Translations under genes and position numbers: made by a program
Notes under the pieces: generated by a model
What the model saw: only the letters and a program-made list of their open reading frames with translations
Database searches by the model: none
What the model was told of the DNA's origin: nothing
Assembly: GCA_963555995.3 (NCBI GenBank)
Contig: OY821641.1
Location: forward strand, 1,056,001 to 1,120,000
Source: Vicinamibacteria bacterium
GTDB lineage: Bacteria; Acidobacteriota; Vicinamibacteria; Marinacidobacterales; Marinacidobacteraceae
DNA: 64,000 nucleotides
Direction: 5' to 3'
In this document: positions 31,387 to 41,960 of the stretch, in pieces
Numbering within the stretch: the stretch's first letter is position 1
Layout: the number at the start of each line of letters is the position of its first letter

Positions 31387-31752
31387 TTGAGTTGGGCAGT
31401 CGAGATCGCCGACGACTTCGCGTCGGAATTCGACAGCCTGCATGTCGATGTGCAAACGGAGATTTTGGCCTTGTCGCGCGTCCTTCAGCGGTTCGGACCG
31501 CAGCTCGGACGGCCCCGGGTGGACACGCTGAACGGCTCCCGGCACGCGAACATGAAGGAAATGCGGTTCCGCGCGGCCCATGGCGAATGGCGGGTGGCGT
31601 TCTGCTTCGACCCCGCGCGGAAGGCTGTCTTGCTCGTTGCCGGCGACAAGTCGGGAACCAGTTCACGGCGCTTCTATCGTGCACTGATTCGCAAGGCGGA
31701 CGAGCGGTTTGACAATCACCTGAGGCGGCTCAAACGAGAGGAGCCATCATGA
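31387..31752 (+). CDS. Type II TA toxin, RelE/HigB (Gp49-like)
   Basis: GPQLGRPRVDTLNGSRHANMKEMR and LLVAGDKSG motifs; toxin-first gene order. Confidence 0.9.
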   Translation: MSWAVEIADDFASEFDSLHVDVQTEILALSRVLQRFGPQLGRPRVDTLNGSRHANMKEMRFRAAHGEWRVAFCFDPARKAVLLVAGDKSGTSSRRFYRALIRKADERFDNHLRRLKREEPS

Positions 31753-32075
31753 CAATCAACGTGGAAGAGAAGATCGCGACGCTCGATCCCGTACAGCGGC
31801 GGAAGGTCGAGGAACGAGCGGCAGAACTCATCGCGGAAGAGATGACCCTGCGCGAGTTGCGCAAGGCCCGGCAGCTCACCCAGGCGCGGGTGGCAACGCA
31901 ACTCGGAATCAGTCAGGACGGCGTCTCAAGGCTGGAGCACCGGAGCGATCTGTTGCTTTCCACCTTGCGCAAGACCGTGGAGGCCATGGGCGGAAGCCTC
32001 ACTCTGGTTGCCAGGTTCCCGGATCGCCCACCAGTCGAACTCTCGGGAATCGCCACGGGTGATCCCGGCGACTGA
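31749..32075 (+). CDS. XRE-family HTH antitoxin (HigA-like)
   Basis: LRELRKARQLTQ..VA..LGISQ..VSRLE..SDLLLSTLR; ATGA overlap with the toxin. Confidence 0.9.
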   Translation: MTINVEEKIATLDPVQRRKVEERAAELIAEEMTLRELRKARQLTQARVATQLGISQDGVSRLEHRSDLLLSTLRKTVEAMGGSLTLVARFPDRPPVELSGIATGDPGD

Positions 32076-35629: not shown

Positions 35630-37288
35630 TCAGCGCAGCGGCACGGGCGGGCCGAACGCCCGGTCCTCTTCCACCACGATCACCCCGTTCTCCTCCACGT
35701 AGGCGTCCCACGCCGCGAGAAGGTCCGCGAGCACATCGGGCCGCTCCGCGGCGAGGTCGGTCAACTCGCCCGGGTCCTCGTCGAGGTTGTAGAGGGCCCA
35801 GTCGCCCTTCCCGAGGGGCGGCGCCAGCCAGGCGATCTTCCAGGGGCCCCGGCGCATGGCGCGGCGTCCGAAGATCTCCCATCCGGCGGTCGGTTCTTCG
35901 TGGACGGTCACCGTGTCCCCGCGCAGGAGACCGGCGATGGACGTTCCGACGGGCGGGATCCTGTCCTCCGCCGCCGGCATCTCCGCCCCGGCGAGTTCGA
36001 GGAAGGTCGGGAACAGGTCCGTGACGTGGACGAACGCGCCGGTGACGGCCCCCGGGAGGTGGGCGGCTAGCGCCGGCGGAATGACCGCGAAACCCGGGAC
36101 CCGGATCCCTCCCTCGTGGACGAACTGCTTGAAGTAGCGGTAAGGGCCGCTCGCGGCGTCCGCCCATTCCGGGCCGTAGAAGACGAACGAGTCGAGGCGC
36201 CCCATGTTCTCGTAGGAGAGGTCGAACCGCTGGGGAAGGAAGGTCTCGTTGTCGGCGAGCCGGCTGACGTCCTCGCCCGCGGCCCCGTTGTCCGAGAAGA
36301 AGAGGATCAGGGTGTTGTCGAACGCGCCGAGTTCGCGCAGCCCCGCGACGAGCCTGCCGATGTGGTGGTCGAGGCGTTCCACCATCGCGGCGTAAAGCTC
36401 CATCTTGCGGGCTTCGCCCCGGCGCTCCTCTTCGCTCAGGTCGTTCCAGCGCCGGGCGAAGTTGGGCAGCGGAGGAACCTCGGCGTCTTCCGGAATCACC
36501 CCCACGCGCTTCGCGCCCGCGATGCGCCGCTCGGCCAGCGCCTCCCAGCCGTCGTCGTAGTCGCCCGCGTAGAGGTCGAGGAACTCGTCCGGCACCTGGA
36601 GCGGCCAGTGCGGCGCGGTGTAGGTGCCGAGGGCGAAGAACGGCTTTCCGGCCCCGTTCGCTTCCCGGATGTAGGCGATGAGTTCATCCGTGTAGGCCCG
36701 GCTCGAGTAGAAGCCCTCGGGGAGCGGAACGACGTCGCCGTCGCGCCGGTAGCGGATCTCGTCGAGAGTGTCCACGGGCGCGGCGTCCTCGAAGTGGCTC
36801 GCCGCCCCCGGAAGGAGCACGAAGGAGCGGTCGAAACCCCGGTGGGGAGGGCTCTGCTCCGCGGCCTGCCCGAGGTGCCACTTGCCGGCGATCGAGGTGT
36901 GGTAGCCGGCGTCCCGCAGGACGGCGGGAAGGTGGAAGACGTGCTCGTTGAGGTACCCCTCGTAGCCGATCCGGCCCTCGAGGTCGTCGCCCATCAGGCT
37001 CGCCATGCCGCCGAGCCCGGCCCGGTGGTGGTCCACCCCGGAAAGCAGCATCGCCCGGGTCGGCGAGCAGGTGGCGGCGGTGTAGAAGCTCGTGAACCGG
37101 AGCCCGGAGGCGGCCAGGGTGTCCAGGTTCGGGGTGCGGATCTCGCCGCCGAAGGCGCCGATGTCGGTGTAGCCGAGATCGTCGGCGATCAGCACCAGGA
37201 TGTTGGGCGGGGGCGGCGGCGGTTCGGGGTCGCGGCAGGCGGTCAGGAACCCTCCCAGCAGGACGAGCGCGGTGAACAGGGGACGCAT
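35630..37288 (-). CDS. Arylsulfatase (AtsA-like, Cys-type) lipoprotein
   Basis: Lipobox LTAC; ADDLGY, CSPTRAMLLSG, GKWHLG and FSDNG motifs. Confidence 0.93.
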   Translation of the reverse strand: MRPLFTALVLLGGFLTACRDPEPPPPPPNILVLIADDLGYTDIGAFGGEIRTPNLDTLAASGLRFTSFYTAATCSPTRAMLLSGVDHHRAGLGGMASLMGDDLEGRIGYEGYLNEHVFHLPAVLRDAGYHTSIAGKWHLGQAAEQSPPHRGFDRSFVLLPGAASHFEDAAPVDTLDEIRYRRDGDVVPLPEGFYSSRAYTDELIAYIREANGAGKPFFALGTYTAPHWPLQVPDEFLDLYAGDYDDGWEALAERRIAGAKRVGVIPEDAEVPPLPNFARRWNDLSEEERRGEARKMELYAAMVERLDHHIGRLVAGLRELGAFDNTLILFFSDNGAAGEDVSRLADNETFLPQRFDLSYENMGRLDSFVFYGPEWADAASGPYRYFKQFVHEGGIRVPGFAVIPPALAAHLPGAVTGAFVHVTDLFPTFLELAGAEMPAAEDRIPPVGTSIAGLLRGDTVTVHEEPTAGWEIFGRRAMRRGPWKIAWLAPPLGKGDWALYNLDEDPGELTDLAAERPDVLADLLAAWDAYVEENGVIVVEEDRAFGPPVPLR

Positions 37289-37394
37289 CGCGCGATTATG
37301 GAACGCCAGCCGCGCGGGACGACGGGACTGGCGCGCCGGCCCGTGCGCAACGATGACCGGGGCCGCTGCGGGACGAGACGTGTCTGACGGCCGA

Positions 37395-37433
37395 GGTAAG
37401 AATCTTGCCGGTAAGAATTGTCCGAGTCATACT
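37395..37433 (+). promoter_or_regulatory. Putative vapBC promoter/operator
   Basis: GGTAAGAAT twice, imperfect palindrome GGTAAG-AAT-CTTGCC, and a CATACT -10-like box 7 nt before ATG 37441. Confidence 0.5.
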
Positions 37434-37440
37434 ATGGAGC

Positions 37441-37676
37441 ATGAAGATCACCACGAAAGGACAGGTCACCATTCCACAGCACCTGAGGCGCAAGCTGGGG
37501 CTTTTTCCGGGGACGGATTCCCGGTCCGCTTCGAGGAGGGTGACGGGGTCGCCGTGATCCGCTCGACGATGACCAAGCAGGAACTCATCGAGGAGAGGAT
37601 TCGGAGGGTCACCGGAACCGCGGACCAGGGCCTTTCGACGGACGAGATCATGCGCCTCACGCGCGGCGAGGACTGA
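37441..37676 (+). pseudogene. AbrB/MazE-type antitoxin (VapB) with a frameshift near 37516-37523
   Basis: MKITTKGQVTIPQHLRRKLGLFPGT stops at 37557; the continuation VRFEEGDG...LSTDEIMRLTRGED is in another frame. Confidence 0.8.
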
Positions 37677-38084
37677 TTGTTTCTCGCCGATTCGAACGTA
37701 CTGCTCGACATCCTGACCGACGACCCCCTCTGGGGATCCTGGTCCAAGGAGGCCGTTCGGGATGCGATCCTCCTGGGAGCGGTGGGAATCAACCCGATCA
37801 TCTATGCGGAGATTTCTTCGGGGTACGGGGATTCGGCTGCCCTCGATGCCTGCCTCGAAGAGCTGGACCTGGCTCGCTGGTCCCTCCCGTACGAGGCAGC
37901 TTTCCTTGCGGGCCACGCGTTCGTTCGGTACCGCCGAAGGGGGGGCGCCCGTTCCTCCCCGCTTGCCGATTTCTTCATCGGAGCGCATGCCCAGACGGCG
38001 GATCTCACCGTGCTGACGCGCGACGTGTCCCGGTTGCGCAGCTACTTTCCCTCCGTCCGGCTGATCTCACCGACCGAGCACTGA
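37677..38084 (+). CDS. vapC: VapC PIN-domain toxin
   Basis: LADSNVLLD, IIYAEIS, LADFFIGAHA and LTRD motifs. Confidence 0.9.
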   Translation: MFLADSNVLLDILTDDPLWGSWSKEAVRDAILLGAVGINPIIYAEISSGYGDSAALDACLEELDLARWSLPYEAAFLAGHAFVRYRRRGGARSSPLADFFIGAHAQTADLTVLTRDVSRLRSYFPSVRLISPTEH

Positions 38085-38114: not shown

Positions 38115-39044
38115 ATGCGCAACCTCCGGGTCGCCGCCGCCCAGGTCGGCGGCATCCAGCCGGACGAGACGAGAACCGAAGTCGTCGGGCGCCTGCTCGA
38201 CCTCATGGAGCGGGCGGCAAGCGCCGGCTGCCGGCTGGTGGTATTCCCCGAGCTCACCCTCACCACCTTCTTCCCCCGCTACTTCCTCGAGGACACGTCG
38301 TCCGCGGACGCGTACTTCGAGACCGCGATGCCCGGGCCGGAAACCCGGCCTCTTTTCGACGCCTCCCGGCGGCTCGGGGTCGGCTTTCACCTCGGATACG
38401 CGGAACGGGTCCGGGAAGGGGACCGCGACCGCCACTTCAACACCGCGGTCCTGGTGGACGCGGGCGAGATCATCGGGAAGTACCGGAAGGTCCACCTCCC
38501 CGGACACGCCGACCACCTTCCCGAAGCGCCGTTCCAGCATCTCGAAAAGCGCTACTTCGAGGTGGGTGACCTCGGATTCCCGGTCTGGCGCGCCTTCGGC
38601 GGGGTGTTCGGGATGTGCATCTGCAACGACCGCCGCTGGCCGGAGACCTACCGGGTGCTCGGGCTCCAGGGCGTCGAGATGATCCTGCTCGGCTACAACA
38701 CCCCGGAGGTGAACATCCACCACCGGGAGCCGGCGCATCTGCGGATGTTCCACCACCGGCTCTCGCTCCAGGCGGGCGCCTACCAGAACGCCACCTGGGT
38801 GGTGGCGGCTGCGAAGTGCGGCGTCGAGGACGGCAGCCGCCTCATCGCCGGCTCGGCGATCGTCTCGCCGAACGGGGAGATCGTGGCCGAATCAGCGGGC
38901 GAGGGGGACGAACTGATCGTCGCCGACTGCGATCTCGACGTGGGGGCCGACCTGAAGCGCCACGTCTTCGATTTCGCCCGCCACCGGCGGACCGAGCACT
39001 ACGGGCTGATTACCGAACGGACCGCGCCGGTCCTGCCGGACTGA
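38115..39044 (+). CDS. N-carbamoyl-D-amino-acid hydrolase (nitrilase superfamily)
   Basis: FPELTLTTFFPR, KYRKVHLPGH, HLEKRYF, ICNDRRWPE and GYNTP motifs. Confidence 0.93.
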   Translation: MRNLRVAAAQVGGIQPDETRTEVVGRLLDLMERAASAGCRLVVFPELTLTTFFPRYFLEDTSSADAYFETAMPGPETRPLFDASRRLGVGFHLGYAERVREGDRDRHFNTAVLVDAGEIIGKYRKVHLPGHADHLPEAPFQHLEKRYFEVGDLGFPVWRAFGGVFGMCICNDRRWPETYRVLGLQGVEMILLGYNTPEVNIHHREPAHLRMFHHRLSLQAGAYQNATWVVAAAKCGVEDGSRLIAGSAIVSPNGEIVAESAGEGDELIVADCDLDVGADLKRHVFDFARHRRTEHYGLITERTAPVLPD

Positions 39045-39201
39045 CGCGCCGGCGTCCCGTCACCCGAATGGCGCCAGGCCGCTGGCGAACTCCACGCGCC
39101 GGACGCCTCCCCTGCGTCCGAGCCCGAATCTCTGTTCGATCTCCTCTGTGCTCACGGTCGACTAGCCTTGCCTGGAAGTCTCCGGACGGTATAACCCTTG
39201 A

Positions 39202-41136
39202 CTATTCGGCTGGCAGAATCATCCGACCAGATTCCATCAATTGAATGACGGATTTCAACATGATGACGGCCATCGGTTTCTGGACACCGTCTCGATGCAG
39301 AAGATGTGTCGTACCTGGGTACTTTCTTCCATCGACATTCTCCTCCCTGAGAACCTCCAACTCATAGCGCTCGAATGTCGAATCAACTGAGGACCAACAC
39401 ACACATATGTCCACCTTGTCGAACTGCTTAGGGCTCTCACCATCCAAGTCCGCAATCAACCCATCCAGATTGTTCTTGAACTCCACCGTAAGATAGTGGG
39501 TCCCAAAAGTTGACGTGTCGCCCAGTACAAAAGGCGAGAGACCCAGAGGACTCTTCTCCGGGTCATAGGACAGTCCTGGCAGGTCCGTGGCACAGTCGAA
39601 GTCCATCAAGCAGTCATATGTCTTGCTCTGACTCGTGGCATAGACTCTCGCCCCTGGAAACACGCCAATTGCACACATTTGATGAAACAGGCCGACAACG
39701 TCCTGTTCCGTTAGTGGCGTGCTCCGGTACCGTATCGGCGGAATATCGAGTGGATTACTCTCGCTATGGTTCCGCACATTGTGCTTCCAGTCTTCATGAT
39801 CCCGTTCCACTTGCCTCAACTTTGGAACATCTTCCTCACCCGGCGGACGCAGGAAGCTGCGTTGCCTAGCAAGGTACTGCACCATCCTGTCCCCAATCCT
39901 CTGGGCAAGCTGCGTCGACTCCGTGTCGATCGTCTTACGTCCATGATCTGGTTTCGCACCGTGGTAGTGAACTATCGCCAAGACATTCTTGGAGAACGTG
40001 ACGAAGCGGGATGGGTCGATGTCGAAGACATCGGCTAACCTCTGACGATTCACGGCGATCAGTAGGCCTGAGTCTAGATGAGTCCGATTCTTGTGCTGTG
40101 TCGCGACTCTGTTCAACTCACCCCATACGCTAGCCTGATAGGGAATAAAGCCATATGAGGTGGGCTTGTACTGTTCCAGCTGTGTCTTATAAGTCGTCCT
40201 CTGATCTTCGGTTAGTTCGCGCACGATGCGATCTTTATCCCAGTGCAAGAAGACGCCATCTTGTCTCTGGAATTGGGAAGGCGGAGCCGATTGCTCGGGA
40301 TGCCTCGCATAGTAGTCGTCTAGGTCAAGAAAACGGAAGGGAGGAAGCCTGACGACTTCATGCGGATACAGAAACGAGGGAGAAATTCTGTGGGTATCTT
40401 CTTGACCGCCGATACGGAGAGTGAGATCAACCTCGATTTCATCGACATCTTCAGAGGACGTGAGCAAGATCTGTCCGACAGCAGTGCGCGTGCGAAGAAT
40501 CACATCCCATACATCGATCGATGCGGCGAGGTGACGTAGACTCTTTGGCCTAGTACGCTGGGAAAATTGTACGCGCACATATGTGCCCTGACTAAGGGAA
40601 TCAAGTGGAGAGGAGTCGCTATCCTCGACCAGAAGAGCCGGCTCATTTCGATTGCCGATGGCCCATGAGTTCCCGTACCGCATTCTCGCTTTCGTGACGA
40701 TTCCTCCTTTCTTGCTGTGAAGGCGAATGTCGTCCGTACTGTACGCAAGAAACGTCATTCCTATTCCCTTATAGCCACGATGTAAGTGTTGCCTCTTGAC
40801 TGGTTTGCCACCGACTGTGGAGGCCGTCTTGAAGGACACATGTGGTGCAAAAGCACAGGCGACTTGATCGGAGTCCATCCCGACACCGGAGTCGAGGAAA
40901 CTGATCCAGTTATCGTCGAGGTCAACAACTACGTGGATCATGTGTGGCCCCTTCAATCCGAGCAGACCTGCATCCTCAACTGCATCGACCGCATTCTGTA
41001 GAGCTTCTGAAGGCACGTCATAGTTGCTGTGATAGCTCTCTAGAACGCCCATAACTGCGCGACGTCTAGCGGCATCGGCGAAGATCGTGTCGGACGCTTG
41101 GAGGGGGTCGAGCGGGAATTTCGTGGGGGAGGGCAT
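39202..41136 (-). CDS. GHKL (Hsp90/MORC-like) ATPase fused to a probable PD-(D/E)XK nuclease; low GC; candidate defence gene
   Basis: EALQNAVDA, DSGVGM, GYKGIG and GT boxes; C-terminal TEQDVVGLF...YDCL...VEFK. Confidence 0.75.
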   Translation of the reverse strand: MPSPTKFPLDPLQASDTIFADAARRRAVMGVLESYHSNYDVPSEALQNAVDAVEDAGLLGLKGPHMIHVVVDLDDNWISFLDSGVGMDSDQVACAFAPHVSFKTASTVGGKPVKRQHLHRGYKGIGMTFLAYSTDDIRLHSKKGGIVTKARMRYGNSWAIGNRNEPALLVEDSDSSPLDSLSQGTYVRVQFSQRTRPKSLRHLAASIDVWDVILRTRTAVGQILLTSSEDVDEIEVDLTLRIGGQEDTHRISPSFLYPHEVVRLPPFRFLDLDDYYARHPEQSAPPSQFQRQDGVFLHWDKDRIVRELTEDQRTTYKTQLEQYKPTSYGFIPYQASVWGELNRVATQHKNRTHLDSGLLIAVNRQRLADVFDIDPSRFVTFSKNVLAIVHYHGAKPDHGRKTIDTESTQLAQRIGDRMVQYLARQRSFLRPPGEEDVPKLRQVERDHEDWKHNVRNHSESNPLDIPPIRYRSTPLTEQDVVGLFHQMCAIGVFPGARVYATSQSKTYDCLMDFDCATDLPGLSYDPEKSPLGLSPFVLGDTSTFGTHYLTVEFKNNLDGLIADLDGESPKQFDKVDICVCWSSVDSTFERYELEVLREENVDGRKYPGTTHLLHRDGVQKPMAVIMLKSVIQLMESGRMILPAE

Positions 41137-41288
41137 CAGGCGGCGACTATAGAACAGTGCTGGGCACTAGAGACAGTTTTCGCTGAGAAGGGCGGAGTTG
41201 CGTGGCGGCCCATTGGACAGATGGTGTTCTTGGGATCTCTGGCCGTGTCGCGCTCAGGTGAAGGTTCCGCGGAGAAGCCGGTCTCTCT

Positions 41289-41960
41289 CTAGGCCGGCAG
41301 CACCGCCCGGCCGCCCAGCCGCCGGATCAGCCGCACCAGCGGCCAGAGGAGCGCCAGGTAGAGCAGCGCGGCGAGGATCAGCGGCGACGGGTTGAAGTGG
41401 ACGCCCTGCGCCACCCGCGCCATCCGCAGCAGGTCCGGGAGCGCCACCACGCTCGCCAGCGAGGTCAGCTTCACGGCCTCCAGCGTGTTCCCCGCGAGGT
41501 CGGGCAGGACGTTCCTTACCCCCTGCGGCAGGATCACGTGGCGGAGGGTCGCGGCGGTCCCGAGCCCGGTGGAGCGCGCCGCCTCCCACTGGGTCGGCTC
41601 GATGCTCAGGATGCCCGCGCGCAGAATCTCGCCGTAGTAGGTCGAGGTGTTGATGGTGAGCGCGATCCCGACCCCGAGGAGCGGCGGCGGTTCGATGCCG
41701 AGGAACGGCAGGCCGTGGACGATAAGGACAAGCAGCACCAGCGGCGGAAACGCCCGCACCACGTCCACCCCCCACGAGAGCACGCGGGCGCGCCAGCCCG
41801 GCGCCAGGGTCTGCGTTAGCGCCAACCCCGCACCGAAGAACAGCCCGCCGGGGATCACGATCAGGCACGCCTGGACCGTGACCCACAGTCCCCGCAGCAG
41901 CAACCCGGAGCTCTCCGCCATCACCCCGGGGTTCAGGAAGGTCTGGAAGAACTCGGACAC
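41289..41960 (-). CDS. Polar amino-acid ABC transporter permease
   Basis: EILRAGILSI..TQWEAARSTGL EAA loop; KLTSLASVV. Confidence 0.93.
   Translation of the reverse strand: MSEFFQTFLNPGVMAESSGLLLRGLWVTVQACLIVIPGGLFFGAGLALTQTLAPGWRARVLSWGVDVVRAFPPLVLLVLIVHGLPFLGIEPPPLLGVGIALTINTSTYYGEILRAGILSIEPTQWEAARSTGLGTAATLRHVILPQGVRNVLPDLAGNTLEAVKLTSLASVVALPDLLRMARVAQGVHFNPSPLILAALLYLALLWPLVRLIRRLGGRAVLPA

Follow-up and report, generated by a model that had tools for sequence, protein, structure and literature searches.

The stretch of DNA analysed here, below called the window, is 64,000 nucleotides long and carries on its minus strand a 644-aa open reading frame (ORF) flanked by a CN_hydrolase (carbamoylase-like) gene at 38115-39044 on the plus strand and an ABC permease gene at 41289-41960 on the minus strand. 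The features of the locus are given below with the evidence for each in brackets.

39202..41136, minus strand: 644-aa ORF encoding a GHKL ATPase, an S5 transducer and a predicted PD-(D/E)XK nuclease (ORF call, motifs, model)
40375..41085, minus strand: GHKL (Bergerat-fold) ATPase domain, residues ~18-254 (domain match, structure match, conservation)
39835..40374, minus strand: S5/transducer domain, residues ~255-434, with D397-x-G399-R400-K401 (whole-module structure matches, conservation)
39217..39729, minus strand: predicted PD-(D/E)XK nuclease domain, residues ~470-640, with E477, D508, E552 and K554 (conservation, helix/strand order)
41146..41151, minus strand: TATAGT, a possible but statistically weak -10 box 9 nt before the ATG (sequence, sigma-70 scan, family-start count)
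39045..41288, no strand: variable slot, measuring 0 bp to 4.3 kb in congeners, that separates the converging carbamoylase-like and ABC permease genes (congener comparison, read-run contigs)
39045..39150, minus strand: decayed 3' remnant of an 87-aa ORF, the place of whose remainder is occupied by the new gene (congener comparison)

A sequence-only reading of this DNA had described the ORF between the carbamoylase and ABC genes as low in GC and deviant in codon usage, and this was confirmed. Its GC content is 0.53 compared to 0.70 for the genome, an equally low value being found in only one of the 1,898 2-kb tiles of the contig, and its GC3 is 0.59 compared to 0.79-0.97 in seven neighbouring genes. 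The GHKL boxes and C-terminal motifs named in that reading are all present and conserved across the family (E44xxxN48xxDA, D82xGxGM, G121xxGxG, G184T, P474..E477QDV..LF, Y507D508, V-E552-F-K554 and DICVCW). The ATG at 41136 is supported as the start by the alignment of homologues from about residue 6, and the database's own gene call (P0002, 579 aa) covers only 90% of the ORF. No Shine-Dalgarno sequence was found at this start. The TATAGT hexamer reported earlier does lie there, but a sigma-70 scan does not report it and finds one site elsewhere against 0.9 expected; moreover, 10 of 48 family starts have TAnnnT between -18 and -10 compared to 6.4 +/- 2.2 in shuffles, a count reached by 64 of 1000 shuffles and hence not significant. 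In the RNA run X13, diverged flanks only were covered and the gene itself was not. The region from 38960 to ~41390 is spanned with 0 differences by contigs of three public runs of one study, which argues against a misassembled locus, these runs possibly including the source sample and not being independent.

Comparison with congeners revealed that the gene occupies a variable slot. In 14 of 15 congeners the two flanking regions were located on a single stretch. They abut directly (0 bp) in four of these and are 16 bp apart in one; four have 356-370 bp between them, including an 87-aa ORF, and five have 858-4,339 bp, in which the small ORF recurs or an IS4 transposase or TSP3-repeat protein is encoded. 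None of this other cargo is known defence cargo, which we count against a defence role. About 110 bp of the small ORF's decayed 3' end are kept in the window beside the gene, indicating that the latter came by replacing or interrupting the 87-aa ORF. The insert measures 2,244 bp, of which 1,935 bp are the ORF, and as only ~155 bp are left on each side there is no room for a partner protein gene. No full-length homologue was detected in any of 40 relatives including all 15 congeners, five genomes giving weak ATPase-box matches only. Furthermore, a joint skipping 39041-41288 was found in runs X1, X3 and X13, which we read as a co-occurring relative with an empty site. The low GC content and the absence of full-length copies from the 40 relatives support the earlier suggestion of a horizontal acquisition, and a recent one.

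The 87-aa ORF, which ends in EIEREFGL, fills the slot in several congeners (L045-L048, with the 356-370 bp slot, as well as L040 and L043) and has a 32%-identical paralogue elsewhere in the genome that carries the window (C1, ~1.2655 Mb). It showed a weak Pfam match to DUF6285 and nothing stronger, and presumably resembles a small antitoxin. A PIN-domain gene (Pfam) with a short upstream ORF is located at window positions 37200-38084, just before the carbamoylase-like gene, and a second toxin-antitoxin-like pair, RelE-like plus HTH as judged by eye, at 31387-32075. At position 37518, inside the ORF upstream of the PIN gene, 5 bases are missing in contigs of three runs, reflecting either a strain difference or an assembly error of the window.

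The protein was modelled by AlphaFold2 from a 97-sequence alignment with a mean pLDDT of 88.3. Residues 18-434 matched GRP94, ParE, SMCHD1, MutL and MORC3 (Z 15.7-19.9, rmsd 4.1-5.0, ~290-325 residues), the alignment spanning both domains of ParE, MutL, MORC3 and SMCHD1. The N-terminal domain is a Bergerat fold with the N, G1, G2 and G3 boxes that define GHL ATPases, and E44, N48, D82, G84 and G121 are present in all 97 close sequences. Since the structural matches cover the whole module, the long middle region noticed previously, the presence of which was confirmed, is the S5 transducer half of the ATPase rather than a sensor. As is typical of GHL proteins, it carries a conserved basic residue: R400 was found in all 87 aligned sequences and K401 in all but one of them, and by analogy with the GHL families K401 is likely the transducer lysine, with a putative catalytic role. 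Nearly the only invariant residues among 87 sequences with a mean column identity of 22% are the ATPase boxes, D397-x-G-R, E477, D508, E552 and K554.

The last four of these residues belong to the C-terminal domain and are kept in all 87 aligned sequences, down to ~22% identity. In the model, helix 477-489 begins at E477, D508 lies before strand 509-516, and E552-F-K554 is placed on strand 549-556, which is followed by helix 557-565 and strand 577-582. The PD-(D/E)XK core has the order helix-strand-strand-strand-helix-strand. The E...D...(D/E)xK residues are placed on this core order, good but indirect evidence for a predicted PD-(D/E)XK nuclease. The resemblance to such nucleases proposed earlier is therefore upheld by residues and core order, while Pfam and PDB contain no sequence match to the domain and its fold is assigned from motif and predicted secondary structure. 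A single-sequence model of the domain reached a pLDDT of 34, and the matches listed for the full-length structure search fell on the ATPase module (residues 18-434). Foldseek searches against PDB and viral models and a wide VIA search yielded only GHKL-module matches among the matches listed, by which no C-terminal fold is ruled out. An Atlas search with residues 462-644 retrieved unnamed clusters only (best 0.90), a fused form of the domain was absent from 7,356 longer candidates, which is weak evidence, and a short motif typical of a different small nuclease-like family had no match in viral contigs. The solo copies are not decaying, since none of the 97 close sequences has lost either active-site set and the nuclease-type residues are intact in all 87 aligned ones.

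A word-based search identified 210 relatives among 7,996 scored candidates, the 120 listed (the gene itself aside) being 50-64% identical. With a profile, 1,022 representatives were retrieved at E<=0.001, of which 238 reached E<=1e-30, fragments and ATPase-only matches included, and the Atlas cluster of the family has 1,946 members. The family is nevertheless rare per genome: beyond the centre genomes, carriers amounted to 1/400, 0/250, 0/300 and 1/300 sampled. It occurs in Acidobacteriota, Chloroflexota, Planctomycetota and Armatimonadota, with distant members also in Pseudomonadota, Actinomycetota and archaea. Matches numbered 0 in 50,697 phage records (two queries) and 0 in 5,426 E. coli genomes (three DNA queries), and four of 72,556 plasmids matched, three near full length. 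The gene has a lower GC content than its flanks in 27/27 close and 13/13 distant loci. The query and 74 members gave no family-level match in our copies of PADLOC 2.0, NCBIfam and Pfam; the PADLOC result agrees with the previous statement that the gene could not be assigned to a named system. A literature search by words tied no paper to the family, with subscription journals mostly outside its scope and words being a poor finder of sequence families.

According to the accessible parts of the reports cited here, proteins of similar design have been described. A study of 2008 introduced paraMORC3, in which a GHKL-S5 module is joined to an E-D-ExK nuclease and whose gene is often standalone (PMC2292703). 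VcSduA, which is linked to paraMORC3 and carries DUF4263, was reported in 2025 to protect against Drexlerviridae at all tested MOIs, requiring its ATPase Glu and nuclease Lys and preserving host viability (PMC12137116). Like VcSduA, type I-D GHKL-Shedu and paraMORC3, the protein studied here is the sporadically occurring product of a single gene and combines an N-terminal GHKL domain, a middle domain and a C-terminal PD-(D/E)XK-type nuclease (PMC12137116; PMC2292703; bioRxiv 10.1101/2023.08.10.552793). However, the family is not a Shedu because the DUF4263 domain of Shedu is missing: DUF4263/SduA_C was detected in 0/74 full-length and 0/32 C-terminal members and had 0 matches in the own genome, and profile-profile comparison with 13 Shedu domains gave a probability of 0.4%. 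The motif set P..EQDV..LF / YD / EFK / CW / G.TH, in which ~35 inserted residues separate D508 from E552, differs from that of Shedu as well.

GHKL-fused type II enzymes such as R.HgiDII also exist (PMC2441816). The family resembles R.HgiDII, the BbrUII family NF050001 and R.VeiORF1182P in the fusion of GHKL to a C-terminal effector and in that a minority of its distant relatives adjoin C5 methyltransferases, but the close relatives of the query are methyltransferase-free and the C-terminal motifs of the VeiORF1182P family are by eye Shedu-like, unlike those found here (PMC2441816). Membership in the BbrUII/HgiDII group was rejected, as the query scored 13.8 bits against the NF050001 cut-off of 550 and in the ATPase region only, with matches in 7/74 members (best E 3.9e-6). 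Tiamat (TmtA), with a DUF3684 core and a DUF3883 nuclease, is likewise a standalone GHL ATPase with a C-terminal PD-(D/E)xK nuclease, is itself anti-phage and needs its ATPase Glu (bioRxiv 10.64898/2026.09.30.754977). DUF3684 and DUF3883 are both absent from the family and the query gave no TmtA match; the weak matches of 27/74 members to one TmtA model (best E 6.9e-10) we read as the common ATPase boxes. The GHKL plus S5 module is shared with MORC, paraMORC1/2/4/5 and MzaB, and some members occur with C5 methyltransferase, Vsr and HNH genes (PMC2292703). MORC sensu stricto was dismissed, its S5 motif GhXhhpXXRhl being found in 0/87 sequences, and so was paraMORC2, since the ExxxH of its C-terminal S5 is not among the conserved columns; a GHKL gene with an ExxxH stretch at locus L056 had no family-profile match among the matches listed. 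ParaMORC1 has its own conserved C-terminal extension and is found with MORC, methylase or HNH genes (PMC2292703), and the family may belong to it, given the HNH, C5 methyltransferase and Vsr genes at L018. The accessible text of PMC13092281 does not mention GHKL. Of the sequence-only proposal of a new single-gene defence system, the novelty thus concerns the family and its nuclease domain, as judged from descriptions of paraMORC3 and from Shedu domain profiles, and not the design, which is known from paraMORC3 (2008) and VcSduA (2025); this is not a new class of system.

The genomic neighbourhood of close relatives (39% identity or more) was analysed at 69 loci, of which 27 (25 distinct) had >=1.5 kb on both sides and 42 were set aside as too short. 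Methyltransferases were searched by tblastn with seven methyltransferase queries and a motif scan, which divergent enzymes could escape. An obligate partner methyltransferase had been named beforehand as a finding that would contradict a self-contained system; a methyltransferase is adjacent at just one of these 27 loci (L009) and present anywhere in the flank at three (L004, L009, L090), with C5 enzymes at none. Apart from duplicates, a dipeptidase and IS pieces, no partner was shared between loci in an all-against-all comparison of the 1.5-kb flanks. Together with the tight insert in the window, this bears out the claims that the gene has no adjacent methyltransferase or partner and is self-contained, its close relatives being solo. 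Most close homologues are located among housekeeping genes and not in defence islands, which counts against a defence role. L004, L007, L016 and L090 are near defence genes, in a chosen subset of loci, and the 95 neighbour proteins checked for defence identity came from loci picked partly as defence-like.

A different picture emerged for distant relatives (23-30%), among which, together with viral relatives, a defence-type context was found, while the close ones mostly lack it. Some of them adjoin Mza or Hma genes, type III, type IIG and GmrSD-like genes also being found next to relatives, and a C5 methyltransferase is adjacent in 5/13 distant loci, which counts against a methyltransferase-free reading. 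Of these five, L018, L019 and L056 form one branch with a support of 100, the C5 methyltransferases of L018 and L019 being 40% identical, and L055 and L163 are closest to the phage-borne group. One might therefore take the protein for a sequence-specific type II-like restriction enzyme, or for a subunit assisting a C5-methylation system, with the methyltransferase adjacent or unlinked depending on lineage; at least seven methyltransferase-like loci, including a C5 one, lie unlinked in the host genome, and R.HgiDII provides a precedent for the fusion (PMC2441816). Yet the methyltransferase could be owned by other systems in four of the five loci, namely by an HNH gene (L018), an NTPase plus DUF2357 pair (L055), a second GHKL gene (L056) or MzaCDE (L163), and at L056 the family gene is split beside an intact methyltransferase ORF. 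The adjacent enzyme of L009 is an N6/N4 methyltransferase that is missing at its tree neighbours L008, L011 and L012. Moreover, self-protection cannot rest on a cognate methyltransferase if a solo nuclease landing in many phyla must spare any host chromosome. We therefore consider the type II-like explanation quite improbable; in its classical form, restriction-modification by an adjacent cognate methyltransferase, it was rejected, such an enzyme being absent from the locus and adjacent in 1/27 close loci, though in 5/13 distant ones.

Seven full-length relatives (25-30%) were found in viral contigs; eight more loci there were excluded, their similarity being confined to the ATPase boxes. L058 and L062 carry the gene antisense, with a GC content of 0.35-0.36, between the P2-type tail gene S and the baseplate spike gene V, the flanks of L062 being 90% identical. 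In L059 the gene follows the cI repressor and faces Menshen NsnABC, in L063 it lies antisense between antiterminator Q and holin/lysozyme genes, and in L061 it adjoins a holin gene. Within 4 kb of the gene, no methyltransferase was found in the viral carriers. They form a sister group, with none in the close clade of the query, which we count against the defence reading for the query. Abortive-infection effectors are commonly housed as single-gene inserts in prophage-like contigs. The protein could act as such an effector, with a phage product activating the ATPase and the nuclease destroying host DNA or RNA; the family members inserted singly in prophage-like contigs agree with this, as do the broken copies L016, L056 and L112, which would be expected of a costly gene. 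A separate sensor domain is, however, absent and VcSduA, the nearest tested analogue, kept its host viable (PMC12137116), which weakens the earlier suggestion of an abortive mechanism and makes it rather unlikely.

The defence role itself may also be questioned. The gene might be a selfish passenger or might code for a mobile repair nickase resembling MutL; alternatively, the C-terminal domain might be no nuclease. This explanation draws on Vsr genes within ~2 kb in L018, L019 and L163, on the lack of defence neighbours in most close homologues and on a nuclease fold predicted from motif and secondary structure only. Rarity, constant low GC content, antisense insertion in phage late regions and unrelated defence neighbours fit defence far better, and we regard a non-defence function as the least probable of the explanations considered here.

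We favour, with a probability of roughly 0.55, the interpretation that the gene encodes a one-protein defence system in which a GHKL clamp and a predicted nuclease cut invading phage or plasmid DNA without a methyltransferase of their own. By analogy with MutL, gyrase B, Hsp90 and MORC, binding of ATP would close the dimer around duplex DNA, and K401 would help hydrolysis, upon which the clamp would reopen as in GHL ATPases. As suggested for VcSduA, the ATPase cycle may gate the C-terminal nuclease (E477/D508/E552/K554), keeping it silent on the chromosome, and cutting may be licensed once the clamp captures a DNA feature typical of an invader, for example free ends or replication intermediates. 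Of all steps of this model, the trigger is the least secure. Gating of the nuclease by the ATPase is still a hypothesis even for VcSduA (PMC12137116), and DNA-end sensing was demonstrated for a different Shedu (bioRxiv 10.1101/2023.08.10.552762).

Type IV enzymes are typically solo, without a methyltransferase. The solo occurrence of the family would thus also fit a modification-dependent, type IV-like enzyme that spares host DNA and cuts phage-modified DNA, the ATPase driving loading or site pairing, and one close and one distant relative are located near GmrSD/DUF262-type genes. However, the GHKL and S5 domains together with a short linker and the C-terminal domain make up the entire model, and a modified-base reader (SRA, EVE, PUA or winged-helix) was absent from 74 members at Pfam E<=0.05. 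Modification dependence, one of the mechanisms proposed earlier, is thereby weakened; 5mC as the target is additionally argued against by the C5 methyltransferases adjacent in 5/13 distant loci. We hold a type IV-like mechanism to be unlikely. For the favoured clamp-plus-nuclease defence, the absence of a reader domain makes gating by DNA structure the best guess.

Few GHL ATPases have a demonstrated anti-phage role (bioRxiv 10.64898/2026.09.30.754977). The family represents a compact, single-gene and well-modelled second case of a clamp combined with a nuclease, and as its nuclease domain is unrelated to that of VcSduA, this design appears to have been assembled more than once. Because PADLOC 2.0, Pfam and NCBIfam lack a family-level model, such genes are missed in defence inventories, e.g. 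of Acidobacteriota and Chloroflexota. One can tentatively speculate that the gene is the founding member of a single-gene defence family not described before, whose GHL clamp discriminates between self and non-self DNA on its own and controls an unclassified PD-(D/E)XK nuclease, with methyltransferase-linked and methyltransferase-free branches. If so, these branches would form a natural pair on how a restriction enzyme loses methylation-based self-protection, the order of methyltransferase gain and loss not being readable from the FastTree tree, which is unrooted and has no outgroup.

Further observations concern the loci of relatives. An unusual defence island lies beside the close homologue in L004 (240-7184), with an E1-E2-like gene, small ubiquitin-pathway-like ORFs, a CapP-like peptidase, an adenylosuccinate-synthetase/kinase fusion and DUF7002, and with GmrSD-like, UvrD and type III Mod genes on the opposite side. 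A likely intein, marked by a LAGLIDADG domain, lies inside the pyruvate phosphate dikinase encoded at L010 (3670-7770). On a plasmid, L055 (437-5462) carries a McrBC-like operon of C5 methyltransferase, NTPase, DUF2357 protein and Vsr genes divergent from the family gene. The P2/186-like viral contig L059 (5304-13393) has a post-cI cargo slot with the family gene, a complete Menshen system (NsnABC) and a C5 methyltransferase. Low-GC uncharacterised ORFs are located beside family members in L151 (1691-3814) and L152 (1639-2894), at the lysis end of viral contigs; they had no PADLOC match at E<=1e-10 and are candidates for further phage-borne defence genes.
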